Below, piece by piece: positions 1-59,714 of a stretch of 64,000 bases of DNA. Position 1 is the first letter of the stretch; each line of letters starts with the position of its first letter. Source of the DNA: Candidatus Aminicenantes bacterium (GTDB lineage: Bacteria > Acidobacteriota > Aminicenantia > Aminicenantales > UBA8522); NCBI GenBank assembly GCA_037444845.1, contig JBBILQ010000004.1:12745-76744 (forward strand), given 5' to 3'. The notes beneath the pieces were generated by a model, which had not been told where the DNA came from, made no database searches, and was given only the letters and a program-made list of their open reading frames with translations. The translations under genes and the position numbers were made by a program.

Positions 1-1150
1 CCATCGTGATTTCTTTGTTCTTCGACAGGATCACAGCGTGCTCGATCATGTTTTCGAGCTCCCTCACATTACCCGGCCAGGAGTAATTCAGCATGAATTC
101 GATGACCTCCGGCGAAAATTTCTTAACGGCCTTATTATTACTCCTGGAAAACTTTCTCAAGAAATGCTCGGCCAGGGGAAGAATATCCTCCTTCCTCTCC
201 TGAAGCGGCGGGAGTTGAACGGTGACCACCTTTAACCGGTAATAGAGGTCCTCTCTGAAAGCCCCCTGCTTGACCAGCGTTCTTAAATCCTTATTCGTAG
301 CCGCAATGACCCGGACATCAACACCGATCTCCTCATTCCCCCCAACCCGGGTAATCTTTTTCTCTTCCAGCGCTCTCAATAGGTGAATCTGGGTATTAGC
401 GTTTATTTCACCTATTTCATCTAAGAATAAAGTCCCTCCGTCTGCCGCCTCAAATTTTCCCTTTTTGCGTTCGATCGCTCCCGTGAACGATCCTTTTTCA
501 TGTCCGAAAAGCTCACTCTCGAGCAGGCTCTCCGGAAGGGAGGCGCAGCTAAGGGCAAGGAAGGGCTTCCGGCGACGCTGACTCTGATGATGAATGGCCC
601 GGGCAACGATTTCCTTCCCCGTGCCAGTCTTCCCGGTGATCAAGACCGTGGCCGTCGTCGGGGCGACCGTTTTAATAAGCTCAAATATCCTCAGCATCCC
701 ACGGCTTTTAGCGATGATCCCTTCAAAGAGATACCTATCCTCTATCTTCCGCCGCAGGGAGATGTTTTCTTCAACCAGGTCCTGGTGAGCCACCAGGTTT
801 TTGATGAGAAGCTCGACTTTTTCGGGGCAAAAAGGTTTTTCGATGTAATCATAGGCGCCTTCCCTGATGGCGGAGATGGCCGTTTGAATCGAACCGTAAG
901 CCGTGATGATGACCGTTATCAGCGCCGGGACCATTCTCCTTGCTTCCTTCATCAGCTCGATCCCGTCTATCCCGGGCATAACCAGGTCAGCCAGCATGAT
1001 TTTTATGTTTTTCCGCCTCAGAATTCCCAGCGCGGCCTCTCCGGATTCGGCGACCTCAACGTTATAGCCAACGTTTACCAGCCAGTCCCGGAGCGATTCT
1101 CTTACTATTTTTTCATCATCGACGACAAGGATTACCGCCTTTTTTCCCAT
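1..1150 (-). CDS. Sigma-54-dependent response regulator (NtrC family). N-terminal receiver, AAA+ sigma-54 activator domain; C-terminus runs off the window start.
   Basis: Manual translation of the minus strand from ATG at 1150: [16 protein letters not shown] (receiver), GKTGTGKE Walker [27 protein letters not shown] (sigma-54 interaction motifs). Not in the ORF track because it has no stop inside the window. The plus-strand ORF 500..1174 is its shadow. Confidence 0.85.
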
Positions 1151-2660
1151 CCATGGCCTCCAGGTAGATCGTGAATGTTGTCCCCTTGTTAAGCTCGCTG
1201 GCTACTTCTATCTTTCCCTTGTGCCTCTCAATAATCCCATGAACGACCGGAAGTCCCAGCCCCACGCCCCTGCCCTTTTCCTTGGTGGTGAAGAAAGGCG
1301 TGAAAAGCTTGCTCAGGTTTTCTTTGGGAATGCCGACCCCGGTGTCGGCGACATCAATCCTGACGGTATTCTTGATTGCTTCATTGATTCTGACGCCCCG
1401 GGCAGCCGATGTGGCGATGGTTAATTTTCCGCCCTCGGGCATTGCTTGAGTCGCATTCAGAATGATATTGATCAGGACCTGCTGAATCTGGTCGAAACCA
1501 GCATGAACAAGAGGTAGATCCTTGCCTAATTTCAGCTCAAGGGTAATGTTTTCCAGGCTGATCTGGTGCCTGACCAACAACAGGGCAGCCTGCACGACCT
1601 TGTTGATCTCAATCGGCCTCATGTCAGCGTCCGATTGGCGTGAGAAATCGAGCAGGTTTCTGATGATCCCGGACGTTCTTTCGAGTTCTTTCTTCATCTT
1701 CAAAAGCTGATTTTCTGTGTCTTCTGTTTGCAATCTTTTGGCTTGATACTTCTTAAGGAGGAGGGTTGTGTAGACCATAATCCCGGCTAAGGGGTTGTTC
1801 ACTTCGTGAGCGACGCTGGCCGCTAATTGACCCAGAGAGGCCAGTTTTTCTGACCTGATCAGTTCGACCTCCGTTTCTTTGCGCTTTGTGATGTCTTCTC
1901 CTGAGCTGAGGGTGCCGATGATCAGGCCCTTTTCATCCGTGAGCGTCGAATTGTGCCAGGCAATGATCCTTTCCTCACCGGACTTGGTCAAGACTGTGTT
2001 TTCATAGTCCTCAACTTCCTCCTCTTCTCCAGCCATCACTTTTTTGAAAGTTTCCCTTCTTTTTTCCCTGACCCTTTCCGGCACGCACAAATCAAACCAG
2101 TCTTTTCCGATTATCTCTTCTCCTCTGTAGCCCAAGACATCACACCCTTTCTTGTTAATGAGCGTAACGATGCCTTTTTCATTAATAGCGATGATGATGG
2201 CTCCCGCGATATTGAGGTACTGTTGGGCTCTATTCCTTTCCTCGAGCAGCTTTGCCCACAGTCCCTTGTGCTTGGTTAAATTCCTGAAGTGTTCCACGGC
2301 GCCGATGATCTCGTTCTTGCTGGAGCGCAAGGGCGAGGTCGTTATGTTGACAGGAATCTTCTTCCCTTCTTTATTCGTTATCACCACCTCATAGCCGAAA
2401 AATGTTTCCCCTGTTGTCATGGCCTTTTTGACGAGACATTCTTCTTTGCAGAGGTCACTCTTGAGAACCTGATCGCACTCCCTGTTCAGCACTTCCTCCC
2501 GCTTGAACCCAGAAATCTCCTCGGCCGCCTGATTAAACGTCGTAATTCTCATCTCTTTATCTACGGTGAGAACTCCCCCTTCCATGCTGTCCAGGACGTT
2601 TTCCAGGAATTCTTTGGTGAGGCCGTTCTCGCTGCTCAAGGAAATTTCTCCCTCTACCAT
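1116..2660 (-). CDS. PAS-domain sensor histidine kinase
   Basis: Several PAS-like segments; HisKA motif SEKLASLGQLAASVAHEVNNPLAGI; HATPase_c region DTGVGIPKENLSKLF...GRGVGLGL...GTTFTIYLE. Its 3' end overlaps the start of the regulator gene by 35 nt. Confidence 0.85.
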   Translation of the reverse strand: MVEGEISLSSENGLTKEFLENVLDSMEGGVLTVDKEMRITTFNQAAEEISGFKREEVLNRECDQVLKSDLCKEECLVKKAMTTGETFFGYEVVITNKEGKKIPVNITTSPLRSSKNEIIGAVEHFRNLTKHKGLWAKLLEERNRAQQYLNIAGAIIIAINEKGIVTLINKKGCDVLGYRGEEIIGKDWFDLCVPERVREKRRETFKKVMAGEEEEVEDYENTVLTKSGEERIIAWHNSTLTDEKGLIIGTLSSGEDITKRKETEVELIRSEKLASLGQLAASVAHEVNNPLAGIMVYTTLLLKKYQAKRLQTEDTENQLLKMKKELERTSGIIRNLLDFSRQSDADMRPIEINKVVQAALLLVRHQISLENITLELKLGKDLPLVHAGFDQIQQVLINIILNATQAMPEGGKLTIATSAARGVRINEAIKNTVRIDVADTGVGIPKENLSKLFTPFFTTKEKGRGVGLGLPVVHGIIERHKGKIEVASELNKGTTFTIYLEAMDGKKGGNPCRR

Positions 2661-2717
2661 TATTATAATAAAACCCGTTCCTCAGTAAAGACTTTTGCCT
2701 CTCCCCCTGGCTTCGCC

Positions 2718-2757
2718 GATAGAATCACCCGGCGGGTCCCGTCGAGGTTCACCCCCG
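2718..2757. promoter_or_regulatory. Conserved 40-nt motif D, copy 1 (gatagaatcacccggcgggtcccgtcgaggttcacccccg), in the 5' leader of the minus-strand kinase/regulator operon
   Basis: Near-identical 40-nt block also at 62204..62243. Both lie upstream of minus-strand genes. On the minus strand it reads as two direct GGGTGA(A/T) half-sites about 22 bp apart. Confidence 0.4.
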
Positions 2758-2800
2758 CGCCCCCTCACACCTCTTCTTACCTTGCTCAGTTCCCCTTTTC

Positions 2801-2886
2801 AATGTTTATTATATTTATAGATTTTATAAATTCTATAAAATCTATAAATTCTATTGACTTTGGATATTTTGATTTGTCATAATGAG
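2801..2886 (+). promoter_or_regulatory. AT-rich tandem 9-11 bp repeats (ctataaaWtY units) followed by a sigma-70-like promoter (TTGACT, 17-bp spacer, CATAAT) upstream of ORF 2975
   Basis: Read directly: tagattttataaattctataaaatctataaattctaTTGACTttggatattttgatttgtCATAATgagg. Confidence 0.4.
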
Positions 2887-2974
2887 GCCACGCCTGTTTC
2901 CAGAGTCATGGAAACCCGGAAAATTATTGCCAACGGAAATCCTTTGAAGACAAAATAACATAAGGAGGCCTGCG

Positions 2975-3619
2975 ATGATTTCAATAATCAGGTTAAGTTC
3001 CCAGGAGAGAAAGGAAAGAATGTGTGATCTGGTAATGGCCAAGCTGGGTGAATTACAGGAAAGCCTGAAGGACAAGGGGCAGCTTCTCTACCTGACCAAG
3101 CGCGCCAGGCATGAGGATGTGAGCCTTTTTGTCCACACCATCGACCCGAATTTCCTGGGAGATTTCATCGCTGAGGGTTTGACTAAGATAGATCATGTGA
3201 CGGGGATCTGGGCCATACACTTGATCAAGCCGGTGTTTTACCCTCTGCCCAAAGATACAAAAAACATGAAAAGATATGCCATTTCCTTAAAGGTTTTTAT
3301 AAAAAACCTCAAGGAGGTCTACAAGAATATCGCAACCCCGAGTCTCCCCGCTGGGCTCAAACTAGCGTACGTCGCCTACACGTTTCATCTCTTCGAGGAC
3401 AGCATCCAGTTTTCGATCCTGACCAAAAATGAAAAGACTCTAAACAATTATCTGACTGATGTCATCGAAAAAATGCCCGGCGTGCTGAGAACCACCGTCA
3501 ACCTGATTGAAAGGACCAGACCCCTTGTCTCTCATGACGCCTGGAGAGAATATTCTTTAAGACACGGCATCGTGTCGTCCTGGAACCAGAACTTGATGGT
3601 TGAGCAGTTCCAGGCGTAA
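2975..3619 (+). CDS. Hypothetical protein with two Lrp/AsnC-type ligand-binding (RAM) domain-like repeats
   Basis: C-terminal segment ...NNYLTDVIEKMPGVLRTTVNLIERTRPLV resembles the AsnC C-terminal domain (IPGVxRTET). No clear HTH recognised. Its own promoter lies upstream. Confidence 0.4.
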   Translation: MISIIRLSSQERKERMCDLVMAKLGELQESLKDKGQLLYLTKRARHEDVSLFVHTIDPNFLGDFIAEGLTKIDHVTGIWAIHLIKPVFYPLPKDTKNMKRYAISLKVFIKNLKEVYKNIATPSLPAGLKLAYVAYTFHLFEDSIQFSILTKNEKTLNNYLTDVIEKMPGVLRTTVNLIERTRPLVSHDAWREYSLRHGIVSSWNQNLMVEQFQA

Positions 3620-3628
3620 CCTGGCAAT

Positions 3629-3970
3629 TCATTCCAACCTAAGTCTTTCCGCTTCGAGGCCAAAATCCTTCACCATAAGTTTGATGGCATGCGCTCTCTT
3701 CTCTGCTTTGAGATTTCCCTCATTGTAGTGGCAATCACCCAGATGACAACCGGGCGTCAGCAGTCCGTTCGACGCATTTCTATTTTGGGATAGCTCCGGC
3801 TTTCTATCCTCCTCATACCTGGCGAACATGACTCCCTTCTGCCTTGCCTTGGTATAATAGCCTTCTCTGAATCCATACGTTCTGATGTCCCGGAACAAAA
3901 CATAAACCTTCGTCCCGGGGAGAAAGCTCTTTTCCCTTCAAGGCGTTCTTCACTGCCTCGGTGCAACAAA
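3629..3970 (-). pseudogene. Decayed hdrA'-'mvhD fusion remnant: partial duplicate of the hdrA/mvhD junction with internal deletion
   Basis: The 89-aa ORF 3629..3898 reads FRDIRTYGFREGYYTKARQKGVMFARYEEDRKPE (matches HdrA 8084..11347 region FRDIRTYGFRESYYSEARRQGVMFARYEEDRKPE) joined to GCHLGDCHYNEGNLKAEKRAHAIKLMVKDFGLEAERLRLE (matches MvhD 7671..8087 GCHPGDCHYKEGNLKAEKRAEAIVLMLEDFGLEADRFKLE). Nucleotide identity is visible, e.g. ctgatgtcccggaacaaaacata shared with 8776..8798. Confidence 0.7.
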
Positions 3971-4028
3971 TGCTGAAGTAATAAATCTTGAATATTCGGT
4001 TGACACGACCGAAATTTCAAGATAATCT

Positions 4029-5198
4029 ATGGCCATGATAGACCGTCCTAGAGAAATTAAAACGCTGAAGAGGCTCATCGCTAGCCATCCTGTCGTCGGC
4101 ATCATCGGCGCCCGACAGGTTGGGAAGACGACTCTGGCCCGGTCGTTCGTCGCCCAGTGGCCAGGGCCGACTCATTATTTTGACCTCGAGAATACCGAAG
4201 ACGAGGCACGGCTCAGTGACCCCATGCTTGCGCTCAAAGGGCTTAAGGGCCTCATCGTGATCGATGAAATCCAGCGCTTGCCGGGTCTCTTTCAGGTTCT
4301 TAGGGTGCTCGCAGATAGAGTCCGGCCCGCCGCCCGTTTTCTCGTCTTGGGAAGCGCCTCGCCCGAGCTGCTTCGTCAGGGGTCTGAGACGCTTGCCGGC
4401 CGGATCATATATCACGAGCTAAGAAGCCTGTCTCTTGATGAAGTCGGGATGATAAATCACGCGCGCTTATGGTTGAGAGGAGGATTTCCCAGGGCTTATC
4501 TGGCCCGAACGGCCACCACGAGCGATGAGTGGCGCCGCGGCTTCATTAGGACATTTCTGGAGCGAGATCTGCCCCAGCTTGGTATTGCGATCCAATCGTC
4601 TACGCTGCGCCGATTCTGGACCATGCTGGCGCATTATCACGGCCAGATCTGGAATTCCTCGGAATTTGCCCGCTCATTCGGCGTTGCCGACACGACCGTA
4701 CGGAACTATCTCGATCTGCTGACTTCGGCGCTGGTTGTCACTCAGCTTCAGCCGTGGCATGAGAACATCAGCAAGCGTCAGATAAAGTCGCCAAAGATCT
4801 ATCTTGCAGATAGTGGAATACTGCACACCCTCCTCAACATCACCTACTTGCAGGACCTCGAAATGCATCCCAAACTTGGAGCCTCATGGGAGGGTTTCGT
4901 GATCAGCCAGGTGATCCGGCAGCTTGGGGCGAGGCCTGATGAATGCTATTTTTGGGGCACCTATGCCGGAAGTGAATTGGATCTATTCGTGGCCAAGGGT
5001 CAATTGCGGCTCGGATTCGAGATCAAGAGAACCAGCTCGCCACGCCTCACGCCGTCCATGAGAACCGCTATGAAAGACCTGAAATTAAAGAGTCTGGACG
5101 TAATCCATGCGGGAGAGAACACCTTTGGCTTGGCCGAGAAAATCCGAGCAGTGGCTTTCCCCAGGTTGCTCGAAGATATAAAGCCCCTACACAAATAG
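4029..5198 (+). CDS. AAA+ ATPase of the DUF4143/COG1373 type (P-loop NTPase)
   Basis: Walker A GARQVGKTTLA and Walker B LIVIDEIQ; architecture typical of stand-alone AAA ATPases that often sit next to defence genes. Confidence 0.75.
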   Translation: MAMIDRPREIKTLKRLIASHPVVGIIGARQVGKTTLARSFVAQWPGPTHYFDLENTEDEARLSDPMLALKGLKGLIVIDEIQRLPGLFQVLRVLADRVRPAARFLVLGSASPELLRQGSETLAGRIIYHELRSLSLDEVGMINHARLWLRGGFPRAYLARTATTSDEWRRGFIRTFLERDLPQLGIAIQSSTLRRFWTMLAHYHGQIWNSSEFARSFGVADTTVRNYLDLLTSALVVTQLQPWHENISKRQIKSPKIYLADSGILHTLLNITYLQDLEMHPKLGASWEGFVISQVIRQLGARPDECYFWGTYAGSELDLFVAKGQLRLGFEIKRTSSPRLTPSMRTAMKDLKLKSLDVIHAGENTFGLAEKIRAVAFPRLLEDIKPLHK

Positions 5199-5349
5199 TG
5201 TCAACGCCTCGAGCTCGACCCAGTCTTTGGAAAGCACTGTTGAAGCCCGGGAGGCTGCCGCCGTGGCCAGAAAGACAGCGTCTTTTTAGCATGATAAAAA
5301 TATCGTAAACCGGACTTGAATTCATGGCCATATTAAGATTATTGGCAGG

Positions 5350-6381
5350 ATGAGGGAAATATTCCGGTTCGGTTCGCCAGCCGACAAAACGAAAAAACTC
5401 AGCAAGAGGACTTCCATAAGAAGCGCAAGTAAAGTGTTTGATACGCGCCCCCGGATCAGTGACTCTTTTGGACTGGATGAACGGATCGTCGTTCATTGCG
5501 GCGACTGCCTGGATTTCCTGAAATCGATTCCGGATCAAACACAACAGTTTATTGTAACATCCCCGCCCTATAATATAGGCAAGGAATACGAAAAACGCCT
5601 TGAGCTCCAGGTATATTTGGATCAACAAGCAAATGTCATTACTGAGTGCGCCCGGGTTTTAAAGCATTCCGGCAGCATCTGCTGGCAGGTTGGAAATTAT
5701 GTTAAGAACGGATCGATAATTCCCCTCGATACTGTCTTATATCCCATCTTTATAGGATTGGGCTTTAAGATGAGAAATCGCATCATTTGGCATTTTGAGC
5801 ACGGCCTTCATTGCTCAAGGCGCTTCTCTGGTCGCTACGAAACGATCATCTGGTTCACTAAGTCGGATGAATACTATTTTAATCTCGACGGGGTCCGCGT
5901 TCCGCAAAAATACCCAGGGAAAAGGCATTTCAAGGGCCCAAAAGCAGGACTGTACTCGGGCAATCCGCTGGGCAAGAATCCCGGCGATCTGTGGATCATT
6001 CCAAACGTCAAGAGTAACCATATCGAGAAGACAATCCACCCCTGCCAGTTTCCCGTTGAACTAATCGAGCGGCTCGTGTTAGCCCTGACTCAAACCGGAG
6101 ATTGGGGCCTGGACCCATTTCTTGGGGTCGGCACTTCGATCATCGCCGCAATCCGGCATGATCGAAGAGGCGCTGGCGCGGAAATCGTTCCCAAGTATGT
6201 TGAGCTTGCCAAAGAGAGAATTGACCAGGAGATCGACGGCACCCTAAAAACGCGGCCCATGAGCCGGCCTGTATATGATCCAGTTGAAGCGGGGAACAGC
6301 CTGACGAAATCCCCATGGGGATCAGAATCTAAGTCTCCTCAACTCTCCCTCATCAAAAGCTTGGTGAACAGGCAGGAATAG
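5350..6381 (+). CDS. Type II DNA methyltransferase, beta-class (N4-cytosine or N6-adenine; SPPY motif IV before FxGxG motif I)
   Basis: TSPPY catalytic motif near the N-terminus, HPCQFP and DPFLGVGTS (AdoMet motif I) near the C-terminus. This order is typical of N4C MTases such as M.BglII, M.PvuII and M.BamHI. Confidence 0.85.
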   Translation: MREIFRFGSPADKTKKLSKRTSIRSASKVFDTRPRISDSFGLDERIVVHCGDCLDFLKSIPDQTQQFIVTSPPYNIGKEYEKRLELQVYLDQQANVITECARVLKHSGSICWQVGNYVKNGSIIPLDTVLYPIFIGLGFKMRNRIIWHFEHGLHCSRRFSGRYETIIWFTKSDEYYFNLDGVRVPQKYPGKRHFKGPKAGLYSGNPLGKNPGDLWIIPNVKSNHIEKTIHPCQFPVELIERLVLALTQTGDWGLDPFLGVGTSIIAAIRHDRRGAGAEIVPKYVELAKERIDQEIDGTLKTRPMSRPVYDPVEAGNSLTKSPWGSESKSPQLSLIKSLVNRQE

Positions 6382-6385
6382 CTGA

Positions 6386-7155
6386 TTGACAATCGCTGAA
6401 ATCTATTCTCATCTTAATGGGCAGGAGTTTCTCTTGGTGCATAAGCGCGCGCTTTGGAAAGAAATCAAAGCGGTCATTAAAGAAGTCGATGCCGTGAAAT
6501 GCAGGACAAAAATCTCGAAGGAAAAAACGAAGAAAGGAAGAACGCTGTACAGCCCGATTGCTCTCAACGCAGATTTTAAAAGACTGCTCAGGGCAAAGAA
6601 TTGGCAAGAGAGCCGGGTTAGTTACTGGGTGACGAAGAGCGAAAAGCTTATTCGAAAGACGTTGACGATGACCGCGGCCGAGCAAAAACGCGAAATCGAA
6701 GAAGCTGGAGAGAAACCTATTTTTAGCTATAATCAGACGGATTTCGTCAAAGACAGAGTCGCGGTAGAAGTCCAATTCGGGAAATACGCGTTTGTTGCTT
6801 ATGATCTATTCGTAAAACACTTGGCTTTCTATGTTGGCGATCAAATAGCCTGATCTATTCACAAAATGATACGATAAAACGCCCCCTCCCCTGGCGGGAG
6901 GGGATAGAGGGGAGGGGGAATCTTTGAATGATCCCCCTCACCCCGACCCTCTCCCACATGGGGAGAGGAGATTTTTTCCTTTCATTTCGTGAATAGTCCA
7001 GGATAGATGTTGGGATTGAAATTCTTCCGATGAAGACTCTACAGAACGAGATGAGTTCGGGCGTTCCTTATTTTGAGGGTGAGTTTTATAACGTCGTTCG
7101 ACAGGGACGGGGAGTCCCCGCTGTGCCTCTGGTGCTAATCGGAGTCGAAGCTTAA
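6386..7155 (+). pseudogene. BglII-family type II restriction endonuclease gene interrupted by a MITE-A insertion (N-terminal part 6386..6848, C-terminal part 7007..7155)
   Basis: N-terminal ORF ends ...RVAVEVQFGKYAFVAYDLFVKHLAFYVGDQIA*. It contains the BglII-like ALWKEI segment and the catalytic EVQF block (BglII TLVEVQF). The stop codon lies in the MITE terminal repeat. Removing 6849..7006 (element plus one ATAG copy) restores an in-frame 203-aa reading frame: ...DQID VGIEILPMK...VPAVPLVLIGVEA*. Confidence 0.75.
6849..7002 (-). mobile_element. MITE-A copy 1 (154 bp), flanked by 4-bp ATAG duplications; sits inside the REase gene
   Basis: Near-identical to 20977..21116 and 59289..59442. Terminal inverted repeats cctgRYctattcacRaaat; direct repeats atag at 6845..6848 and 7003..7006. 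Confidence 0.85.
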
Positions 7156-7445
7156 TCCCTGAGCACTCAACCCTAAGGTAATGAGGTAGCAGCGCGCCTA
7201 ATGCTTCAGCCATAAAGTCAGCATAACGCCATAAATAGGGTTCATAAGGATATGGGCTCAGATGTCAAATCGTGCAAAAAATGCGGAAGGCGGGCTCTGA
7301 AGATACAAAAAGGCCGAGTCACGCAGAAATCATCCAGACCTGTCTGACCTATCCTCCTGGAAAAGAAAGGATTACTAAAAATACTCAGCCGAAGTCTCGG
7401 CGGCCAGGAGAACTTCGTGATAGACAAGGCAGGATTGCTGGGCGG

Positions 7446-7655
7446 TTAAGCCGGGGGCGGCTGGCCTTCCAGGACAATTTTCGTCACCAATCTTCTTGTA
7501 TAAAGAAGAAATTGCCCCCCTTCTTCTATCAACTCCACTTCAAAATTGTCCTTCTTGTAGTTCTCCATCACCTCTTGAGCCTTCTCCCTGGACTCGTAGA
7601 CAACGCCATCCCACATGAATTTTTTCCCGTTTATGATCCTCGAAGAATCCGGCAT
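7446..7655 (-). CDS. Small hypothetical protein (69 aa) at the 3' end of the hdr operon
   Basis: ORF on the same strand and tightly spaced after mvhD. No recognisable motifs or cysteines. Confidence 0.3.
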   Translation of the reverse strand: MPDSSRIINGKKFMWDGVVYESREKAQEVMENYKKDNFEVELIEEGGQFLLYTRRLVTKIVLEGQPPPA

Positions 7656-7670
7656 CTTAAACCCTCTGTC

Positions 7671-8087
7671 TTAGGTTTTATACGGGCTCGGCCCTAACTT
7701 TTTAACCTTCTCGGTAAACTCCCTCACCACCTGGGCGAACCTCGGCCCCTCAGACGCCGAAACCCATTCCAACTTAAACCTGTCCGCTTCCAGGCCAAAA
7801 TCTTCCAGCATCAAAACGATTGCCTCGGCTCTCTTCTCCGCCTTGAGGTTTCCCTCCTTGTAGTGGCAGTCGCCGGGATGGCAACCGCACATCAGCACCC
7901 CATCCGCTCCCTTGGTCAGGGCATCAATCACTAAATTGGGATGGACCATCCCTGAGCACATCACTCTGATGATCCTTATATTGGGAGGATACTGCAACCT
8001 TGACACCCCGGCCAGGTCCGCTCCCGCATAGGAACACCAGTTGCAGCAAAAACTCACGATTAAGGGCTCAAACGCCTCACTCATCAT
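7671..8087 (-). CDS. mvhD: MvhD-like subunit (methyl-viologen-reducing hydrogenase delta / FlxD-like)
   Basis: FCCNWCSYAGADLAG...RVMCSGMV...CGCHPGDCHYKEGN, the MvhD signature. Confidence 0.9.
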   Translation of the reverse strand: MMSEAFEPLIVSFCCNWCSYAGADLAGVSRLQYPPNIRIIRVMCSGMVHPNLVIDALTKGADGVLMCGCHPGDCHYKEGNLKAEKRAEAIVLMLEDFGLEADRFKLEWVSASEGPRFAQVVREFTEKVKKLGPSPYKT

Positions 8088-11000
8088 CCTACTCCTAAGG
8101 CCGCGTTGGCCTGCGCGGCTAACTGTTCAAGGGTAAAGCCTTTGACGAATATTCCCTTCTTGGGACAGGTGGCCATGCAGCACCCGCAGCCCTTGCAGGC
8201 CGTCTCATCCACCTCGACCGTCTTTTTCACCGAACCATTTCTCATGTATTCGATTAATGTAATTGCCTGATAAGGACATGGTTCAATGCAGTAGGCGCAG
8301 CCGTCGCAGTTCTCATCCACCACCTGAGAAATGTTCGCCTCCAGCTCCACACTGTCCTTGGAGAGCACCGTCGATGCCCGGGAGGCTGTCGCCTGGGCCT
8401 GGATGATGCTCTCGTCGATGGCTTTGGCCGAATGAGCCAGGCCGCATAAAAAGACTCCCTCGGTGGCAAAATCAACAGGCCGCAACTTCATGTGGGCTTC
8501 CAGGAAAAACTTCTCCTTGGTTAAGGGGACTTTCAAGAATTTGGCAATCTCCTCGTTCCCCTGATCTGCCACAATTCCGGCCGACAACACGACCAAGTCC
8601 GCGGTAAGCTCCAGGGGCATCTTTAACGTCTGGTCAAAAACCACGACACTCAACCCATTCCCGTTCTGGGACACCTCCGGCTTTCTATCCTCTTCATACC
8701 TGGCGAACATGACTCCCTGCCGCCTGGCTTCGGAATAGTAGCTTTCCCTGAACCCGTACGTCCTGATGTCCCGGAACAAAACATACACATTCGTCTTAGA
8801 AGAAAGCTCTTTTATTTTTAGAGCGTTCTTGACGGCTTCGGTGCAGCAAATCCGGGAGCAGTAGGGCCTTTCCACATCCCGGGAGCCAACGCATTGAATC
8901 ATCACGATGTTCCTGGGAATTCCGTTATTCCTGCCCTTTGACCAAATTCCACCCTCGCCGAGGCGCTGCTCCAGCTCAAGCTGAGTTATGACTCTGTCAT
9001 TCTGTCCGTACAGATACTCCTTGGGTTTATATTGCTGAGCTCCGGTGGCAACGATCACGACGCCGTGTTCAAATTCTTCTGATTTTCCGTTCGTGCTAAT
9101 CGTTGTCTTGAAATTCCCGATTGTCCCTTCAATCTTTTCGATCTTAGCATCTGTGTAAAGAAAGATTTTTCCCGAGTCTTCGACCTGTTCGATAAGGCTT
9201 TTTAACCTGCTCTGCGGGTTTTCTCCGCTTATTAAGTAGTTGATATGCCGGAGATTTCCGCCCAGCTCCTTCTCCTTCTCAACCAGATGGACATAAAACC
9301 CCTGGTTAGCCAGTTCGATTGCCGAAGTCATGCCCGAAAGCCCGCCGCCGATGACGAGGGCAGCTTTAACGATGGGCACGGCTCTTTTCTGGAGAGGGCT
9401 CAATAATCGCGCCTTGGCCACAGCCATTCTGACCAAGTCCCTGGATTTCTCCGTTGCCTTTTCCGGCTCCGCCATATGCACCCAGGAGCACTGGTCCCTG
9501 ATATTGGCCATCTCGAAAAGATAGGGGTTCAGCCCAGCTTCCCTGGCCGTATTCCTGAACAGAGGCTCGTGAGTTCGCGGCGTGCAGGAGGCCACGACGA
9601 CGCGGTTGAGGCTGTGCTCCTTGATTTTTTCCTTTATTCTCTCTTGAGTGTCGTTCGAACAGGTGTAGAGGTTATTTTCTGCGTAAACGACACCGGGAAG
9701 CGTCCTGGCATACTCGACTACATCCAGGACACGGACCACCCCGGCGATATTTGTCCCGCAGTGACAGACGAAGACTCCGATTCGCGGCGCCTGCCCGCTG
9801 ACATCAGTCTCCGGGGGGTATTCCTTGGGAATAATAAGGCTTCCTTTAACGTCTCTTAAGAGCGACAGGACTTTGGACGAGGCGCCCGAGGCCTGCATGA
9901 CCGTCTCCGGTATATCCTTTGGCTCAGTAAAAGGACCGGCGACATACACTCCTTCGCGTTTTGATTCAACCGGAGCAAAAGGAGACGTCTTGCAGAAATG
10001 GAATTCATTGAGCTCGACCCCGAATATTTCAGAAATTTCTTTGGCCGATTTTGGGGGGAGCATGCCGACGGATAAAACAACAAGGTCATACTCACGCGAA
10101 GCCTTCCTGTCGTCCTCCGTTAGATAGTCGACGATCAGGTTTTTTGTTTGAGGGACCTCTTTAATGGTGGGCGGACGACACCTTACATAATTTACTCCAT
10201 GCTCCTTAGCCCTTTGATAATACTCATCAAACCCCTTGCTGAAGGCGCGCATGTCCATGATGTAGACATCACAGTCCAGATCTCCGCTGATATGCTCCTT
10301 GGCAATGATGGCTTCCTTGGTCGCGTACATGCAGCAGACAGAGGAGCAATAATCCCGCTCCGAATCACGCGAGCCCACGCACTGGATAAAGGCTATCCTT
10401 CTGGGTTCGGTCTTGTCATAAGGCCTTAAGACTTTTCCAGAATAGGGGCCCGAAGCAGAGAGGATTCTTTCAAACTCGAGCGAGGTGACGACATTAGGGG
10501 AAGCCCCGTATCCCAAACCCTCTTTGATCTTGGCGTCGAACAGGTCGTATCCCGGCGACAGGATGACCGCGCCGACATCCAATTCCATTTTCTTCTCGGT
10601 CTGGTCATAGTCAATCGCCCCGGCTTCGCAAAACTCCTTGCAGACCCCGCATTCATCCTTGAGCACATGGACACAGTATCGTTCGTCGATCGCTGCTTTA
10701 TGAGGAACGGCCTGGGGATAGGCAATGTAGGCCGCAGCCCGATCGAGCAATCCCTTGTCAAATTCATTCAAGATGGGGATTTCTTTATTCTTGCTGATTT
10801 TCTCAAGCCTAATCCTTTCGGTCGGACAAATAAAGGCACAGGCTCCGCAGGTCTGGCAGACATCGGAATTGGCATCAAACGGCGGGCCGACCTTCCGCTG
10901 AGGTCCGCGATGGACAAACCCGATGGCCGCGACACCCATTCGTTCGCAGCACATTCTTGTGCACAAGCCGCAAAGGAAACAATCATCGTTCCTCTTTGTA

Positions 11001-11347
11001 AAGCGTGTTTCTCTAACCCCATGTTCTTCGGCAACACTCTGGATGACTTTTGAATCAGGGCATCTCGCCAGGAGCAGTTCGATCATGATCTTCCGCGATT
11101 TTTTCACCCTTTCGGAATCCGTCTTCACCTCCAAACGATGGCTCGCCGGATAGGTGCATGAAGTCTGAATCGTCGTCCTCCCCCTTTGAATAACCTCGAC
11201 CAGGCATAATCTGCAAGCTCCGTAAGGAGTTAGGGCTTTATGATAACAGAGAGTCGGGACCTTTATGCCCACACTCTGAAGACATTCTAAGACTGTCTTC
11301 CCTTCATCGAATTCGTACTGTCTGCCGTTTATCGTCAGCTCAATCAC
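8084..11347 (-). CDS. hdrA: HdrA-like FAD/FeS oxidoreductase with an N-terminal NuoG-like 2Fe-2S/4Fe-4S domain and tandem HdrA modules (1087 aa)
   Basis: N-terminus MIELTINGRQYEF...CYHKALTPYGACRLCLVEV (2Fe-2S ferredoxin domain); FAD-binding GGGLSGMTSAIELA; HdrA Cys-rich CHCGTNIAG and CSWVH motifs; C-terminal CxxCxxCxxxCP ferredoxin. Confidence 0.85.
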   Translation of the reverse strand: MIELTINGRQYEFDEGKTVLECLQSVGIKVPTLCYHKALTPYGACRLCLVEVIQRGRTTIQTSCTYPASHRLEVKTDSERVKKSRKIMIELLLARCPDSKVIQSVAEEHGVRETRFTKRNDDCFLCGLCTRMCCERMGVAAIGFVHRGPQRKVGPPFDANSDVCQTCGACAFICPTERIRLEKISKNKEIPILNEFDKGLLDRAAAYIAYPQAVPHKAAIDERYCVHVLKDECGVCKEFCEAGAIDYDQTEKKMELDVGAVILSPGYDLFDAKIKEGLGYGASPNVVTSLEFERILSASGPYSGKVLRPYDKTEPRRIAFIQCVGSRDSERDYCSSVCCMYATKEAIIAKEHISGDLDCDVYIMDMRAFSKGFDEYYQRAKEHGVNYVRCRPPTIKEVPQTKNLIVDYLTEDDRKASREYDLVVLSVGMLPPKSAKEISEIFGVELNEFHFCKTSPFAPVESKREGVYVAGPFTEPKDIPETVMQASGASSKVLSLLRDVKGSLIIPKEYPPETDVSGQAPRIGVFVCHCGTNIAGVVRVLDVVEYARTLPGVVYAENNLYTCSNDTQERIKEKIKEHSLNRVVVASCTPRTHEPLFRNTAREAGLNPYLFEMANIRDQCSWVHMAEPEKATEKSRDLVRMAVAKARLLSPLQKRAVPIVKAALVIGGGLSGMTSAIELANQGFYVHLVEKEKELGGNLRHINYLISGENPQSRLKSLIEQVEDSGKIFLYTDAKIEKIEGTIGNFKTTISTNGKSEEFEHGVVIVATGAQQYKPKEYLYGQNDRVITQLELEQRLGEGGIWSKGRNNGIPRNIVMIQCVGSRDVERPYCSRICCTEAVKNALKIKELSSKTNVYVLFRDIRTYGFRESYYSEARRQGVMFARYEEDRKPEVSQNGNGLSVVVFDQTLKMPLELTADLVVLSAGIVADQGNEEIAKFLKVPLTKEKFFLEAHMKLRPVDFATEGVFLCGLAHSAKAIDESIIQAQATASRASTVLSKDSVELEANISQVVDENCDGCAYCIEPCPYQAITLIEYMRNGSVKKTVEVDETACKGCGCCMATCPKKGIFVKGFTLEQLAAQANAALGVG

Positions 11348-11375
11348 GCCGACCTCCGTTCAAAGGAAACTGTTT

Positions 11376-14300
11376 TCATTCTTTAGCCTCGAGATCACAC
11401 CTCAGACATCGCTTGGCTTCAAGGACGGCATCGGCCTCGCTGAATCCCAGTTCAACCTCTGAAAAATCTTTAAGTCTCTGCTCAACCGGCCGGGATTGGA
11501 CTTCAGGCCTTTTCAGGCTTTTCGTCTCTTGCTCCGTGAGCTCAACGGCCTCCACATGCACGGCCGGACGGGTGACCTCATATCTTCTCTCCAGCTTTTC
11601 ACCCCTGATATACGTATCTATCATCTGAGCAGCCGTTTTGCCATGGGCCATGGCCTCGGTCACTGTATTCGGGCCGGTCACCACATCACCCCCTGCGAAT
11701 ATCCCCTTGATATTTGTAGAAAGAGTTTCGGGATCGACCTCGATGGTATTCCATTTAGAAATGTTCAATCCATTTCCGCTGAACAAAGAGACATCCGGCT
11801 CCTGACTGATGGCCAAAATCAACGTATCCACGTCGAGGCGAAATTCTGAGCCCTCTACCGGGACAGGCCGTCTTCTCCCGCTCTGGTCTATTTCTCCCAG
11901 TTCCATCCTGATACATTCAATAGCTTTGAGCTGGCCATTGCCTGAAATGACTTTGACCGGAGCAGCCAGGAATTGGATCTCCACGCCCTCGGCCATGGCT
12001 CCTTCAACTTCGCTCTCGATAGCGGGCATCTCCGCTCTCGTCCTTCTGTATAAAATTTTCGTATTCCTGCCTAAGCGTCTGGCTACCCGGGCAGCATCGA
12101 TGGCAGAATTTCCCCCCCCGACAACGATGACCTTGTCACCAATCTTGACTTGGCGTCCAAGGTTAACATCCCTCAGGAATTCGATGGCATCGATAACACC
12201 CCCCGCTTCTTCGCCGGGGATTTTCATCTTCAAGCCTCTATGAGCTCCGATGGCGATGAAAACAGCGTTATAGTCTTCCTTCAGTTTAGCTAAGGAAATG
12301 TCTTTCCCCACAGTCGTGTTCGTCTTTATTTCCACCCCTAATTTTTTTATCCTGTCTATTTCATACTTCAAGACATCCTTGGGGAGCCTGAAATCCGGAA
12401 TACCCAGGGCCAGCATGCCGCCGGGGAGTTCCTGGCTTTCAAATATGGTCACTTTGTACCCTTCAAGAGCAAGATAATAAGCGCACGTCAGCCCTCCCGG
12501 ACCGGAGCCAACGATGGCCACCTTTTCTTTTTTTTGGCTCTTTGGTTTTTCTCCCGTGTCGAGGTCATGCTTCATCTCATAATCGGCCAGGAAACGCTTC
12601 AGCAGCCTGATGGAGATGGGATCATCCCATTCCCCGGCGACGCACTTCTTTTCACAGGGCGTATTACAGACCCTCCCGCAGACAAGAGGGAGCGGGTTTT
12701 CTTTTCTCACCACTTTAATGGCATCTTCAAGTTTTCCCCGGGCAATGAGCCCTATATAACTGGGGACATCCTGGGAAAGCGGGCAGATATGCTGACAGGC
12801 AGATGAAATAATCCCCTTGCACACCAACGCAGAGCATCTCTTGTATTTAATGTGCTCGATATACTCGTCCTCGAAATATCTCAACGTGCTCAGGACAGGG
12901 TTCGGGAGCGTCTGTCCCAGCCCGCACATCGAGGCGTCTTTGATCGCATCGCTGAGCTCTTCTAAAATCTGGATGTCCTTTTCTTTGCCTTCCCCTCTGC
13001 AGATCCTCCTGAGTATTTCCAGGAGCTCCGTTGACCCGTCGCGGCAGGAAGCGCATTTTCCGCAGGACTCATCGTTGGTGAATTCGATAAAATACTTGGC
13101 CACATCCACGACACAGGTGTCCTCGTCCATCACAATCAACCCGCCGGATCCCATAATCGACCCTGCTTCGGTCAATTTTTCATAATCCACCGGCAGGTTT
13201 ATCAAACTCGCGGGAATGCACCCCCCTGAAGGCCCTCCCGTCTGGATGGCCTTGAACTTTTTCCCCTTCGGGATTCCGCCTCCGATATCATAGATGATTT
13301 CTTTTAGAGTAATTCCCATGGGGACTTCGACCAGGCCCGTGTTGTTGATCTTGCCGACAAGAGAAAATACCTTTGTCCCTTTGCTCAACGGAGTGCCAAT
13401 ACTGCTAAACCAATCCGATCCTCGGTCAATGATAACCGGAATCGTCGCCCAGGTTTCGACATTATTGATGACCGTGGGCTTTCCCCATAGCCCTGACTCA
13501 ACAGGAAACGGCGGCCTCTGTCTTGGCTCTGGCGGACGCCCCTCTATGGAACCGATGAGCGAGGTTTCTTCGCCGCAAACGAATGCCCCTGCTCCCTGTT
13601 TGATGGAAATATCAAAGCTGAAATCCGTATCGAATATTCTTTCACCAAGAAGCCCGTAATCTCTTGCCTGGGCCAGCGCAATCTCCAGCCTCTTCATGGC
13701 CAGCGGGTACTCCGCTCTGATGTAGACATACCCTTTTCTGGCGCCTATGGCTCTGGCTCCGATCAGCATTCCTTCGATGACCGAATGAGGGTCAGCCTCG
13801 ACAATGCTCCTGTCCATGTAAGCGCCGGGGTCGCCTTCATCTCCATTGCAGATGATGTATTTTGTGTCTCCCGGCTGGTTCCAGCACAGTTCCCACTTCA
13901 GGCCTGTTGGGAATCCAGCCCCTCCCCGGCCTCGCAGGCCGGATTTTTTCACTTCTTCAATAATATCTTCCGTCGACATTTCTGTGAGCGCCTTGGCCAG
14001 GGCTTTATACCCGTCTCTGGCGATGTATTCGTCGATGACTTCAGGGTCTATTAACCCCCTGTTTCTAAGAGAGATGAGCGTCTGGCGGGAGAAGAATCCA
14101 ATATCCATCATCTTGGGAATGGGAACCCTCTCGGCAGGGGGGGTAAACAGAAGCCGCTTGACAGGCCTCCCTTTCAAGAAATGCTCCTCAACCAGATGCG
14201 GAATGATATCTTTAGTTAGACTATGATAGAAAATGCCATCGGGCATGACAGTCATGACAGGGCCTACAGCGCAAAATCCGTTACATCCTGTCATGACAAC

Positions 14301-14441
14301 GATGACTTCTTTATCCAGTCCTTGCTTCTTTAATTCTTCGTCCAGCGCTTCCTTGATCTTAAAAGCCTTATTGGAAACACAAGCGGTCCCCGCGCAGAGC
14401 ATTAAATGGAGCCTGTATCTGTCCAAGTTTTGCCCGTTCAT
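11376..14441 (-). CDS. NuoE-like/NuoF-like/GltD(NfnB)-like fusion: NAD(P)H-oxidising flavoprotein (FlxA-like input module)
   Basis: N-terminal thioredoxin-like 2Fe-2S domain; NuoF motifs GLRGRGGAGFPTGLKWE and SCGKCxxCR; C-terminal GltD-type VAIVGSGPGGLTCAYYLALEGY...GGGNSAIDAAR. Confidence 0.85.
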   Translation of the reverse strand: MNGQNLDRYRLHLMLCAGTACVSNKAFKIKEALDEELKKQGLDKEVIVVMTGCNGFCAVGPVMTVMPDGIFYHSLTKDIIPHLVEEHFLKGRPVKRLLFTPPAERVPIPKMMDIGFFSRQTLISLRNRGLIDPEVIDEYIARDGYKALAKALTEMSTEDIIEEVKKSGLRGRGGAGFPTGLKWELCWNQPGDTKYIICNGDEGDPGAYMDRSIVEADPHSVIEGMLIGARAIGARKGYVYIRAEYPLAMKRLEIALAQARDYGLLGERIFDTDFSFDISIKQGAGAFVCGEETSLIGSIEGRPPEPRQRPPFPVESGLWGKPTVINNVETWATIPVIIDRGSDWFSSIGTPLSKGTKVFSLVGKINNTGLVEVPMGITLKEIIYDIGGGIPKGKKFKAIQTGGPSGGCIPASLINLPVDYEKLTEAGSIMGSGGLIVMDEDTCVVDVAKYFIEFTNDESCGKCASCRDGSTELLEILRRICRGEGKEKDIQILEELSDAIKDASMCGLGQTLPNPVLSTLRYFEDEYIEHIKYKRCSALVCKGIISSACQHICPLSQDVPSYIGLIARGKLEDAIKVVRKENPLPLVCGRVCNTPCEKKCVAGEWDDPISIRLLKRFLADYEMKHDLDTGEKPKSQKKEKVAIVGSGPGGLTCAYYLALEGYKVTIFESQELPGGMLALGIPDFRLPKDVLKYEIDRIKKLGVEIKTNTTVGKDISLAKLKEDYNAVFIAIGAHRGLKMKIPGEEAGGVIDAIEFLRDVNLGRQVKIGDKVIVVGGGNSAIDAARVARRLGRNTKILYRRTRAEMPAIESEVEGAMAEGVEIQFLAAPVKVISGNGQLKAIECIRMELGEIDQSGRRRPVPVEGSEFRLDVDTLILAISQEPDVSLFSGNGLNISKWNTIEVDPETLSTNIKGIFAGGDVVTGPNTVTEAMAHGKTAAQMIDTYIRGEKLERRYEVTRPAVHVEAVELTEQETKSLKRPEVQSRPVEQRLKDFSEVELGFSEADAVLEAKRCLRCDLEAKE

Positions 14442-20910: not shown

Positions 20911-21165
20911 AATAGGCGGATGTTTCTCCTGTCAAGGCGAGCACCCATTGCGTGCGTGGCATCCCATGATAACTAACCTGGACTATTCACGAAATGAAAG
21001 GAAAAAATCCCCTCTCCCCATGTGGGAGAGGGTCGGGGTGAGGGGGATCATTCAAAGATTCCCCCTCCCCCCAGGGGAGGGGCCTGCTTTCTGGCATAAT
21101 TTGTGAATAGGTCAGGCTAACTGAGATCACTTCGTTTCGCTCGCGATGACAAAGTCCTAACGGCA
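20911..21165. repeat. Repeat-C palindromic element (REP-like) split by a nested MITE-A insertion
   Basis: Left half gtcaaggcgagcacccattgcgtgcgtggcatcccatgataa, right half ctgagatcacttcgtttcgctcgcgatgac. Together they align to the uninterrupted copy at 38620..38696. Confidence 0.7.
20977..21116 (+). mobile_element. MITE-A copy 2 (140 bp; 14-bp internal deletion relative to the other copies) with CTAA target duplication
   Basis: ctaa at 20973..20976 and 21117..21120; inserted within repeat C. Confidence 0.85.
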
Positions 21166-21251: not shown

Positions 21252-23234
21252 ATGCATCCTCTTCGCTTGTCCCTGCGAATAAAGCTCATCCTCAGTTTTT
21301 TGGTGGTCATCATCATAGGCGGGTTGATCTCCCTCACCTTCGGCCAGCGCTTGATCAAGAACGTTCTCATCTCTCAAGCCCAGGTCAAGGTCAATCACGA
21401 CCTGGCCTCTGCCTGGATCGTCTTCAACGAGAAGCTCAATGACATCGAAGACATCGTCAGCCTTACCGCTTCCCGGGAAAGCCTCCATGAGGCAATCCGG
21501 AATAACCGGAAAGACATTCTTCTCCGCTACCTGAACCGGGTCAGGAACCAGTACGGCCTGGACGTTCTGACCCTTACGGACAGACGAGGTCGGGTCATCA
21601 CGAGGACCAGGAACCCTGAGGTGGAAGGGGATGACCAGTCCGGGGATGAAATCGTCAGCTGGGCTCTTCAGCCCAATGTCCTCGCCTATCCCCAGATTAT
21701 CCCCCGGGAGGAGCTCCTTAAAGAGGGAAAAGACCTGGCCGAGAAAGCCTGCATGGAATTCATCCCTACCCCCAAGGCCGCTCCAAGGCCCGAGAATAAA
21801 GAGACAAGCGGCTTGATGCTTAAGGCAGCTGCCTCGGTCATCGATGAGAATGACGAGCCCCTCGGGGTTCTCTACGGCGGCATCCTCCTTAACCGCAACT
21901 ATGAGATCGTGGATAAGGTCAAAGAGACCGTCTTCAAAGGAGAAAAATACAAGGGGGTGGAGACGGGAACGGCGACGATCTTCCAGGGAGACCTGCGCAT
22001 CTCCACAAACGTCACCGATGCCCAGGGCCATCGGGCCATCGGCACGCGTATCTCCGAGGAGGTGAAGAAAGCCGTGCTCGATAAGGGCAAGTCCTGGAAC
22101 GACCGGGCGTTCGTCGTCAAGGACTGGTACATCACGGCTTACGAGCCGATCAAAAACATCAAGGACGAGATCATCGGCATCCTCTATGTGGGAACGCTGG
22201 AAAAGCCGTACATCGATATCGCCAATCGAGTCATGTTGACTTTCACTATCCTGGCCTCCCTCTGCGTCATCTTTCTCTTAGTCAGCCTCTATTTCTCAAC
22301 GACAAGAATCATCAAGCCTCTTCAGCGGATGGTCAACGCTACTCAGGAGATTGCCAAAGGAGACCTCGAGCATAAGGTGGAAATCAAGTCGACCGACGAG
22401 CTGGGCTATCTTGCCTCCTCCTTCAACCAGATGACCGAAAAACTCAAGGCCGCCAACGAGGAGCTTATCGAATGGGGCAGGACGCTTGAAAAAAAAGTCC
22501 AGGAGAGGACCGGAGAACTCCTGGAGATGCAGGCCTCCCTCGTTCAGTCAGAAAAACTGGCCTCGCTGGGCAAGCTGGCCGCAGGAATCGCCCACGAAAT
22601 CAACAACCCCCTGGGAGGAATTCTCATTTATAGCCATCTCCTCCTCGAAGAGACAAAGGGAAAAAGCGGCCAGTCTGAAACCCTGAAAAAAATCATCAAA
22701 GAGACATCCCGCTGCAAGAACATCGTCAAAGGGCTGTTGGAGTTTGCCCGGCCCAAAGAGCCGGAGATGGCGCCAACCGACCTCAATGAGGTAATAAACA
22801 AGACCCTGGCGATTTTTGAGCGCCAGGCGCTTTTTCAAAACATCAAGGTCGAGAAAGATTTTTCTGGCATTCCCAGGATCGTGGCTGACGGGTCCCAGCT
22901 CCAGCAGGTCTTCGCCAACATCATCATCAACGCCGCCGAAGCCATGGACGGAAATGGCCTGCTGACGATCAAGACATATCTGGACACAAAGACCAACGTT
23001 TTAAGAATCGAGTTCCGGGACACGGGACACGGAATCCGAGAAGAGGACCTGCCCCGTCTCTTCGAGCCTTTCTTCACCACTAAAGAAGTGGGCAAGGGGA
23101 CCGGCTTGGGCCTGGCCATCAGCTACAGCATCGTCCAAAAACACAACGGGTCTATCAAGGTAAAGAGCGAGGTCGGCCAGGGCTCAACCTTTACCGTCAT
23201 TCTCCCCCTGAACAAGGAAGCGCCATATGAATAA
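21252..23234 (+). CDS. Sensor histidine kinase with periplasmic sensor domain, HAMP, HisKA and HATPase_c
   Basis: N-terminal TM segment LILSFLVVIIIGGLISL and a second TM segment; HAMP region; SEKLASLGKLAAGIAHEINNPLGG; GTGLGLAISYSIVQKHNGSIKV. Confidence 0.85.
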   Translation: MHPLRLSLRIKLILSFLVVIIIGGLISLTFGQRLIKNVLISQAQVKVNHDLASAWIVFNEKLNDIEDIVSLTASRESLHEAIRNNRKDILLRYLNRVRNQYGLDVLTLTDRRGRVITRTRNPEVEGDDQSGDEIVSWALQPNVLAYPQIIPREELLKEGKDLAEKACMEFIPTPKAAPRPENKETSGLMLKAAASVIDENDEPLGVLYGGILLNRNYEIVDKVKETVFKGEKYKGVETGTATIFQGDLRISTNVTDAQGHRAIGTRISEEVKKAVLDKGKSWNDRAFVVKDWYITAYEPIKNIKDEIIGILYVGTLEKPYIDIANRVMLTFTILASLCVIFLLVSLYFSTTRIIKPLQRMVNATQEIAKGDLEHKVEIKSTDELGYLASSFNQMTEKLKAANEELIEWGRTLEKKVQERTGELLEMQASLVQSEKLASLGKLAAGIAHEINNPLGGILIYSHLLLEETKGKSGQSETLKKIIKETSRCKNIVKGLLEFARPKEPEMAPTDLNEVINKTLAIFERQALFQNIKVEKDFSGIPRIVADGSQLQQVFANIIINAAEAMDGNGLLTIKTYLDTKTNVLRIEFRDTGHGIREEDLPRLFEPFFTTKEVGKGTGLGLAISYSIVQKHNGSIKVKSEVGQGSTFTVILPLNKEAPYE

Positions 23235-59035: not shown

Positions 59036-59288
59036 GATCGTGTTTTCCAGCCCAAACGGCCGCCTCTATTCAAGACGACTGACCCCGCCTCTTCTTTCTC
59101 AGCCTCTGGAGCATCAACCCTGATGAAAATACTCTAAGTATGAATATAAAGACTTGGATGAGCGCCTAATTATTGACTGGTAATCCATTCCATCTGAGGC
59201 GGAAGCGTTCCCAGTGAGATGAATTGAAAGACATCCCTTAAGATCCCAATAGTCTGGGGGATATTGTCATAGGCGAGTTTTCTATTAA

Positions 59289-59442
59289 CCTGGACTATTC
59301 ACGAAATGAAAGGAAAAAATCCCCTCTCCCCATGTGGGAGAGGGTCGGGGTGAGGGGGATCATTCAAAGATTCCCCCTCCCCTCTATCCCCTCCCCCCAG
59401 GGGAGGGGCCTGCTTTCTGGCATAATTCGTGAATAGGTCAGG
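59289..59442 (+). mobile_element. MITE-A copy 3 (154 bp) flanked by TTAA / TTAG
   Basis: Identical architecture to copies 1 and 2; intergenic between dprA and the nucleotidyltransferase gene. Confidence 0.85.
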
Positions 59443-59714
59443 TTAGATAAGTTTTAAGCATTCATCCCTGCTGGCATCGATAAGGAGTATAAACCGGCAG
59501 CTCGGAAAGCGTCAAGTTGCCGGAGAAGGAATTGGTTCTTGGTTGTACCAGATCTATATAAAACGTCATAAATAGTCGGGCGCAATTTTAGGCGTTATCA
59601 CTCCTGCCTTTATGGATAGATCACGTTGGTGAAGAAGTAAACTGGCGCCTTCGAAGGCAGTTCCTTATTCGAAAATGATAGCAACACAGGGTCCTGCCGA
59701 ATTTTCGCCTTGCT

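Follow-up and report, generated by a model that had tools for sequence, protein, structure and literature searches.

A probable remnant of a diverged hdrA-mvhD copy within a small insertion behind an hdr operon of Aminicenantes

The hdr operon and its last genes

The window (the whole stretch of DNA that was analyzed, 64,000 nt from a Candidatus Aminicenantes bacterium) has its best relatives among Aminicenantes metagenome-assembled genomes (MAGs); positions are those of the window unless a related locus, cited by its L number, is named. The window carries on its minus strand an operon comprised of hdrC and hdrB, NuoE-like genes, a NuoF+GltD fusion (11376–14441), an HdrA2-type gene, mvhD, and a conserved 69-aa gene, in that order. 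The two genes on which this study turns are intact.

8084–11347, minus strand: intact hdrA-like gene of 1087 aa, with an HdrA2-type match in NCBIfam
7671–8087, minus strand: intact mvhD (Pfam FlpD, E 7e-56)

The HdrA-like protein (8084–11347) carries a 2Fe-2S domain (Fer2_4) at its N terminus and contains a repeat, in that its last 215 residues match an upstream segment at ~32% in every relative. This repeat explains the additional HdrA matches inside every locus, which had been considered as remnants and were rejected. Two further sets of candidates were set aside: the short "HdrA" proteins (P0002 and others) are frameshift-split gene calls from the error-rich contig L081, and the truncated mvhD of L006 results from masked runs of N. 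The 69-aa gene (7446–7655, minus strand) directly follows mvhD and gave 56 hits among 80 related loci, with occurrences also in the archaeal Methanomassiliicoccales loci L050 and L055. Its product matches no Pfam family above threshold and could represent a small, so far unrecognised subunit of this Hdr/Mvh-type complex.

Three fragments of hdrA and mvhD

Beyond the last gene of the operon lie three pieces homologous to hdrA and mvhD, referred to here as the relic, two of them joined to each other and the third at a distance.

3630–3771, minus strand: mvhD' fragment, ~codons 60–107 of 138, without the N-terminal Cys-rich part and the C terminus
3769–3983, minus strand: hdrA' fragment, codons 829–897 of 1087, with a frameshift near 3920
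3769–3776, minus strand: deletion junction between hdrA codon 897 and mvhD codon 60, placed from the alignment end-points
3629–3898, minus strand: junction ORF of 89 aa, from the ORF list, with a partial Pfam FlpD match
5205–5275, minus strand: hdrA'' fragment, codons 981–1004, out of order relative to hdrA'

Comparison of the window with itself aligned hdrA' with positions 8650–8863 of the intact gene (80.0% nucleotide identity over 215 nt with one 1-nt indel, E 9e-52) and mvhD' with positions 7765–7906 (76.8% over 142 nt, gapless, E 1e-28). The homology of the relic to hdrA and mvhD is real, specific, and far beyond chance. An earlier sequence-only reading had recognized this homology and put the identity at roughly 85%, a figure that has to be lowered to the measured 77–80%. 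In tblastn comparisons hdrA' covers HdrA residues 829–897 in two frames, with 83% amino acid identity at residues 852–897 and 74% at 829–851, the change of frame being due to a 1-nt insertion near 3920, and mvhD' covers MvhD residues 60–107 with 69% identity. The hdrA part had been described as ~180 bp ending at 3970; the fragment is indeed there, but it is 215 bp long, reaches 3983, and is frameshifted.

The alignments of hdrA' and mvhD' overlap by 3 nt (3769–3771), which on the alignments would amount to weak microhomology only, and the reading frame is preserved over the join. Relative to the intact genes, positions 7907–8649 are absent, a loss of 743 nt or ~248 codons where ~260 had been estimated. 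The in-frame hdrA'-'mvhD junction proposed from the sequence is borne out, as the ORF at 3629–3898 runs from HdrA-like into MvhD-like sequence in frame and matches positions 53–98 of the 123 in the Pfam FlpD profile. A 66-aa version of this ORF is annotated in an NCBI record, and two NCBI contigs carry the relic ORF; the structure as a whole is known from one genome, on one metagenome-derived contig. The relic lacks MvhD residues 1–59 and 108–138, which separates it from a functional MvhD/FlpD (PF02662), and the conserved C of CGCHPGDCHY is substituted. Likewise, all that is left of an HdrA-like flavoprotein is residues 829–897 and 981–1004 of 1087, interrupted by the frameshift.

The third fragment, hdrA'', which the sequence-only reading had overlooked, is 78.9% identical in nucleotide sequence to hdrA positions 8336–8406 (E 5e-12, again from the self-comparison), and its in-frame translation FLATAAASRASTVLSKDWVELEA corresponds to IQAQATASRASTVLSKDSVELEA in the intact protein. 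It sits across an ATPase cassette from hdrA'-mvhD', such that the order in gene orientation is hdrA'' (codons 981–1004), the ATPase cassette, and then hdrA' (codons 829–897) fused to mvhD' (codons 60–107). Judged from the alignments, this order is non-collinear with a single deleted copy and looks like a duplication junction of the form codon 1004/cassette/codon 829. All pieces are internal to hdrA and mvhD, and the true 3' end of the operon, comprised of mvhD codons 108–138 and the 69-aa gene, is absent from the relic.

Limits of the insertion and the empty site

The relic belongs to a stretch of DNA that relatives do not have.

3625–7418, no strand: lineage-specific insertion (the island) of ~3.8 kb, its limits set within ~7 nt by collinearity with L082 and by empty sites

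The order in L082/L089 (FWPV01003278.1) is a histidine kinase, a 214-aa gene (p214), the 69-aa gene, mvhD, and hdrA, with the stop codons of p214 and the 69-aa gene 39 nt apart. Window positions 1–3624 align with L082 7070–10650 (82.2%) and positions 7426–12000 with L082 10665–15239 (84.6%), the position of the island being occupied in L082 by 14 nt. The empty site is found in at least ten relatives (L089–L092, L094–L096, L101, L104, and L105), some of which came from a metagenome scan anchored on p214, and the insertion is also missing from L005. Since these relatives keep p214 and the 69-aa gene 34–40 nt apart, the insertion extends from ~3625 to ~7418. The island thus lies in the spacer that separates the 69-aa gene (7446–7655), the last of the operon, from the convergent p214, and the relic starts 5 nt from the native spacer, at its extreme left edge. 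No hdrA or mvhD remnants like the relic were found in any of the 80 + 24 related loci.

These limits place the accessory DNA precisely behind the 3' end of the hdr operon and the relic at an edge of the insertion, as the sequence-only reading had it, and the synteny comparison it proposed is what delivered the empty sites. The block that it delimited, 2661–7445, is too wide. It took the 214-aa gene (2975–3619) for island content, and this gene is resident in the relatives and lies outside the island; its label as Lrp/AsnC-like is without support, because HTH_AsnC and AsnC_trans_reg were not found in 2975–3619 (Pfam, NCBIfam, PDB). Indeed p214 matches no Pfam or NCBIfam family and no PDB sequence below E 0.19.

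Among the island ORFs there is no integrase or recombinase, the hits being restricted to AAA_14/DUF4143, N6_N4_Mtase, and Endonuc-BglII. No direct repeats were found at ~3625 and ~7418, where the ends share at most 2–3 nt. The island therefore lacks both marks of an integrase island, namely the integrase and attL/attR sites that match the target 3' end. A duplicate of p214 was sought at 7156–7445 as a sign of two-sided duplication, and nothing beyond the spacer was seen. The GC and skew profile, computed as the sequence-only reading had recommended, is undistinctive (0.55–0.58 GC in the ATPase gene versus ~0.50 elsewhere), so composition speaks neither for nor against a foreign origin. In L093, a different cargo follows p214 at 2813–9737, containing two adjacent ORFs judged AbiEi/AbiEii-like by sequence inspection and having a repeated ORF start (MFTLHPRPLFLIIQDDERRQNW...) at its two borders (4766–5245 and 9519–9734), which suggests that the 3' side of p214 may be a recurrent insertion hotspot.

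Content of the insertion

Apart from the relic, the island consists of an ATPase cassette, a damaged restriction-modification (RM) module, and a terminal segment.

3984–5204, plus strand: ATPase cassette, a 39-nt palindrome (3985–4023) followed by an AAA_14+DUF4143 gene (4029–5198)
5312–7155, plus strand: type II RM module, methyltransferase (MTase) at 5350–6381 and BglII-like endonuclease (REase) at 6386–6848 and 7003–7155, interrupted
6849–7002, no strand: MITE-like element of 154 nt, terminal inverted repeat (TIR) CCTGAYCTATTCAC, 4-bp target duplication ATAG
7156–7418, no strand: terminal island segment with a terminator-like hairpin (7388–7401, minus strand; terminator scan) just past the last gene of the operon

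The ATPase gene matches the PADLOC PDC-S01 profiles PDLC04790 (E 1.9e-81) and PDLC04789 (E 3.4e-48 over residues 3–337); by these profile matches it is a PDC-S01 candidate defense gene with a putative anti-phage role. DUF4143 has been counted among the PD-(D/E)XK families (PMC3424549). Orthologues of the ATPase with 84–87% identity are found in other Aminicenantales in a conserved context of response regulator, ATPase, and aldehyde dehydrogenase, and nucleotide homology to them spans exactly 3985–5194, ending 1–10 nt from the hdrA fragments. The near-perfect 39-nt palindrome at 3985–4023 (ATCTTGAAtATTCGGTTGAC / GaCCGAAaTTTCAAGAT), directly upstream of the ATPase start codon, is kept in the orthologues of other context (L113–L119), and the shared cassette begins precisely with it; a role as operator or recombination site is conceivable. 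Contigs of just 1.2–3 kb hold many close homologues of the ATPase, as is common for repeated or mobile genes.

The RM module is 82% identical at the nucleotide level to L083–L088, contigs of unrelated context. Of its two genes, that for the MTase is intact (Pfam E 2e-49), and that for the REase is interrupted by the 154-nt MITE; deleting 158 nt restores an ORF of 203 aa. Adjacent MTase and REase genes that are both intact, as a type II RM system has, are not found here, and with its endonuclease disrupted the system is probably an orphan methylase. Further copies of the MITE lie at ~20973–21119 and ~59286–59445, making three in the window; they are 85–91% identical over their full length and 98% over a 98-nt stretch, contain G/C-rich internal hairpins, and are flanked by target duplications of ATAG (copy 1) and TTAG (copy 2), so that the element has all the hallmarks of a MITE. 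None was seen in the loci of the relatives. Segments 7156–7418 and 5276–5311 have no homologue among 119 loci, and no Rfam family matches anywhere in the window.

Divergence of the relic from the adjacent genes

Over 427 aligned nucleotides the relic and the adjacent genes share 78.7% identity, and the identity of the relic to the orthologues of seven other species is much the same (L002, 79.4%; L092, 78.7%; L091, 78.2%; L089 and L095, 77.3%; L096, 74.9%; L001, 74.2%), where the adjacent genes themselves are 80–83% identical to those orthologues. Of 27 derived sites specific to the window, the relic shares seven, against a background of 7/37, 4/16, 2/8, and 1/13 for other lineages. Neighbor-joining placed it inside the close clade of window, L001, L002, and L082 with 100% bootstrap support and as sister to the local copy with 29%. 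Partial matches to possible donors reach 88% over 108 nt of mvhD (L002) and 83% over 200 nt of hdrA (L091), and no donor lineage closer than ~80% overall was found among the related loci searched.

Differences between the relic and the local copy are distributed over the three codon positions as 24/14/53, compared with 16/3/59 for a functional pair, and 22 changes unique to the relic fall at first and second positions that are otherwise invariant in nine functional orthologues. Third positions have diverged by 37% from the local copy, as against only ~8% decay at constrained sites. From the codon-position bias and the altered invariant sites we infer that the parent copy was long under purifying selection and then underwent ~8% neutral decay. 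A relic made from its neighbors at the time of integration would share their derived sites and be less diverged at third positions, which argues against such a derivation; by these comparisons the divergence of the relic appears too great for a recent duplicate of the adjacent genes.

To look for chimerism, sliding-window identity to L002, L001, and L082, then to the relatives of the p214 clade, was combined with informative-site triplets. The intact operon is a mosaic, with a switch of affinity near 7700 (29:16 versus 18:38 informative sites), and these comparisons gave no clear breakpoint upstream of codon 829 (above 8863) that is attributable to the island. On either side of the island, the immediate flanking genes (p214 and the 69-aa gene) are L089-like (0.62–0.75). 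Because the flanks share this ancestry, the island seems to have split a contiguous native tract, which fits the comparisons better than replacement of the operon 3' end by a donor.

Origin of the relic

On this evidence the relic is best explained as non-functional debris of a diverged hdrA-mvhD copy, which was probably captured together with DNA of a related Aminicenantes lineage by homology-anchored recombination. Our confidence is fair that it is what remains of a diverged copy, and much lower in the specific route of recombination. A second hdrA-mvhD pair, of the same orthologous type as the neighbors, would have had a mostly functional history at a species-level distance, then lost its function and been reduced by rearrangements to three pieces: an internal deletion of 743 nt would have made the in-frame hdrA'-'mvhD junction, the 1.2-kb ATPase cassette would have been set between the two hdrA pieces in the manner of a duplication junction, and an additional truncation would have cut the copy at mvhD codon 107, against the native spacer. 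Related Aminicenantes DNA with hdrA-mvhD homology may have been captured by homology-facilitated illegitimate recombination (HFIR), in which incoming DNA anchors on the conserved gene, its cargo joins illegitimately, and orphan gene fragments end up behind the cargo. Single-crossover insertion is another conceivable route, since a Campbell-type insertion of a circular molecule with an internal hdrA segment would also produce the order codon 1004/cassette/codon 829. It is hard to see the presence of hdrA-mvhD debris right behind the resident hdrA-mvhD as coincidence. Extra deletions must nevertheless be assumed in the capture model, as the true 3' end of the operon is missing from the relic. 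Of the two mechanisms in the sequence-only reading, recombination between operon copies stands in modified form, since the second copy must have been diverged at the species level, either imported or displaced.

The other mechanism, a fresh partial target duplication in which the island integrated at the operon 3' end, copied the adjacent hdrA-mvhD, and left the copy to decay neutrally, is improbable. The relic does have the orientation of the intact genes and lies 3.7 kb from them at the island edge, and the third-position share of 0.58 is near the ~0.5 that decay of one copy beside a conserved one would give. Against this, the local derived sites are shared without excess over other lineages, the orthologues of other species are equally distant, and the 37% divergence at third positions is out of proportion to the ~8% decay at constrained sites; moreover, the fragments come from inside the genes and do not follow gene order, in an island that has neither integrase nor flanking repeats. 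An ancestral tandem arrangement, with a second hdrA-mvhD copy that was functional for long and decayed in this lineage alone, would account for the mostly synonymous divergence, which implies a long functional life, and in L002 (11621–13484) and L012 (5371–6436) the 69-aa gene is indeed followed immediately by another, convergent pair, mvhD2-hdrA2. That pair, however, lies on the opposite strand and has 68% (mvhD) and 41–48% (hdrA) amino acid identity to the first pair, so by sequence it is a different paralogue from the relic. The complete Aminicenantes chromosomes CP070825 and CP070750 contribute one such locus each among the best 80 loci, with no second copy of the same type. At least ten lineages would need a clean, independent loss to the same spacer of 34–40 nt, and import from, or recombination with, a related unsampled lineage is therefore more economical. 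We regard the tandem origin as unlikely.

Two further explanations carry still less weight. Chimeric assembly of variants from different strains or species comes to mind because the source is evidently a MAG-type contig and the close relatives are all MAGs, but at 77–80% identity few or no k-mers of assembly length are common with the local copy. Several independent joins are well formed, the cassette being flush with the fragments and the MITE having its 4-bp target duplication, and the presence of the relic ORF on two contigs also speaks against an artefact, which we consider very improbable. That the relic is functional, whether its product is a small protein resembling FlpD or an RNA that acts on hdrA-mvhD as antisense or decoy, is scarcely credible. 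An ORF of 89 codons is open over the junction, and read-through from p214 would be predicted to give RNA antisense to the relic; yet the ORF covers 46 of the 123 FlpD positions without the N-terminal cysteines, residues invariant in nine orthologues are substituted, a frameshift lies upstream, the structure occurs in one lineage only, and 77–80% identity is poor for antisense pairing.

Comparison with known systems

In T6SS effector-immunity arrays, orphan fragments are found behind inserted cargo and HFIR has been proposed as their source, with rhs work cited in the same study (PMC5361080). The locus described here resembles this C-terminal displacement of the rhs/T6SS type in the succession of intact gene, new cargo, and orphan fragments in the same orientation that are diverged at the allele or species level, and in having more than one orphan block. 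Order, strand, and divergence all agree (21% divergence, no excess of shared derived sites). It differs in that a core redox operon takes the place of a polymorphic toxin, in that the relic ends at mvhD codon 107 without the 3' end of the gene, and in that retention of the orphans has no apparent benefit here.

Islands at att sites that bring a replacement 3' copy are similar in their insertion exactly at an operon 3' end with a partial copy at the distal edge. There, the copy is a short exact att repeat, whereas here it is internal and 77–80% identical, and both the integrase or recombinase and the direct repeats at the ends are absent. Defense islets at core-gene hotspots offer another parallel, as small variable cargo (a type II RM module and a PDC-S01 candidate) lies between conserved genes, and the relative L093 has other cargo after p214. 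Such hotspots usually swap their cargo by flanking homologous recombination, leaving no core-gene fragments in the cargo. Here, in contrast, core-gene fragments lie inside it. Pseudogenes formed by deletion at microhomologies share with the relic the internal deletion with a 3-nt overlap, the frameshift, and the relaxed constraint, but the parent in this case is a diverged homologue and not the neighboring gene.

A broader proposal would make the hdrA-mvhD 3' region a recurrent homology anchor for the capture of defense cassettes by HFIR in Aminicenantes, each event leaving an orphan fragment, with the two fragment blocks representing two successive events. We consider this doubtful. If it were true, C-terminal displacement would occur outside polymorphic-toxin loci, and core-gene homology could guide the capture of islands in an uncultured phylum. 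In the reading preferred here, debris of a diverged copy, the relic is ordinary genome debris and a new instance of a known phenomenon, in a small decaying defense islet. The practical value lies mostly in correcting annotation, as the public 66–89-aa "FlpD" ORF is a pseudogene fragment and has no place in counts of MvhD or hydrogenase subunits. In addition, the site is a well defined example of defense genes inserted at a place that is empty in at least ten relatives, which serve as exact controls. Overall, the observation made from the sequence alone is partly confirmed and its interpretation partly supported.

Other features of the window

An exact look-up of the window proteins on contigs found nothing. 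A 62-nt direct repeat (84%) occurs at 2712–2773, in the intergenic region between the histidine kinase gene and p214, and at 62198–62259, and could represent a regulatory element common to both places. Two-component genes at the left end (1–2660), which encode a sigma-54 activator and a PAS histidine kinase, are paralogous to a kinase/activator pair at 21252–24579 (60% nucleotide identity over 912 nt), and this pair, at 21–24.6 kb, flanks divergent mvhDGA hydrogenase genes.
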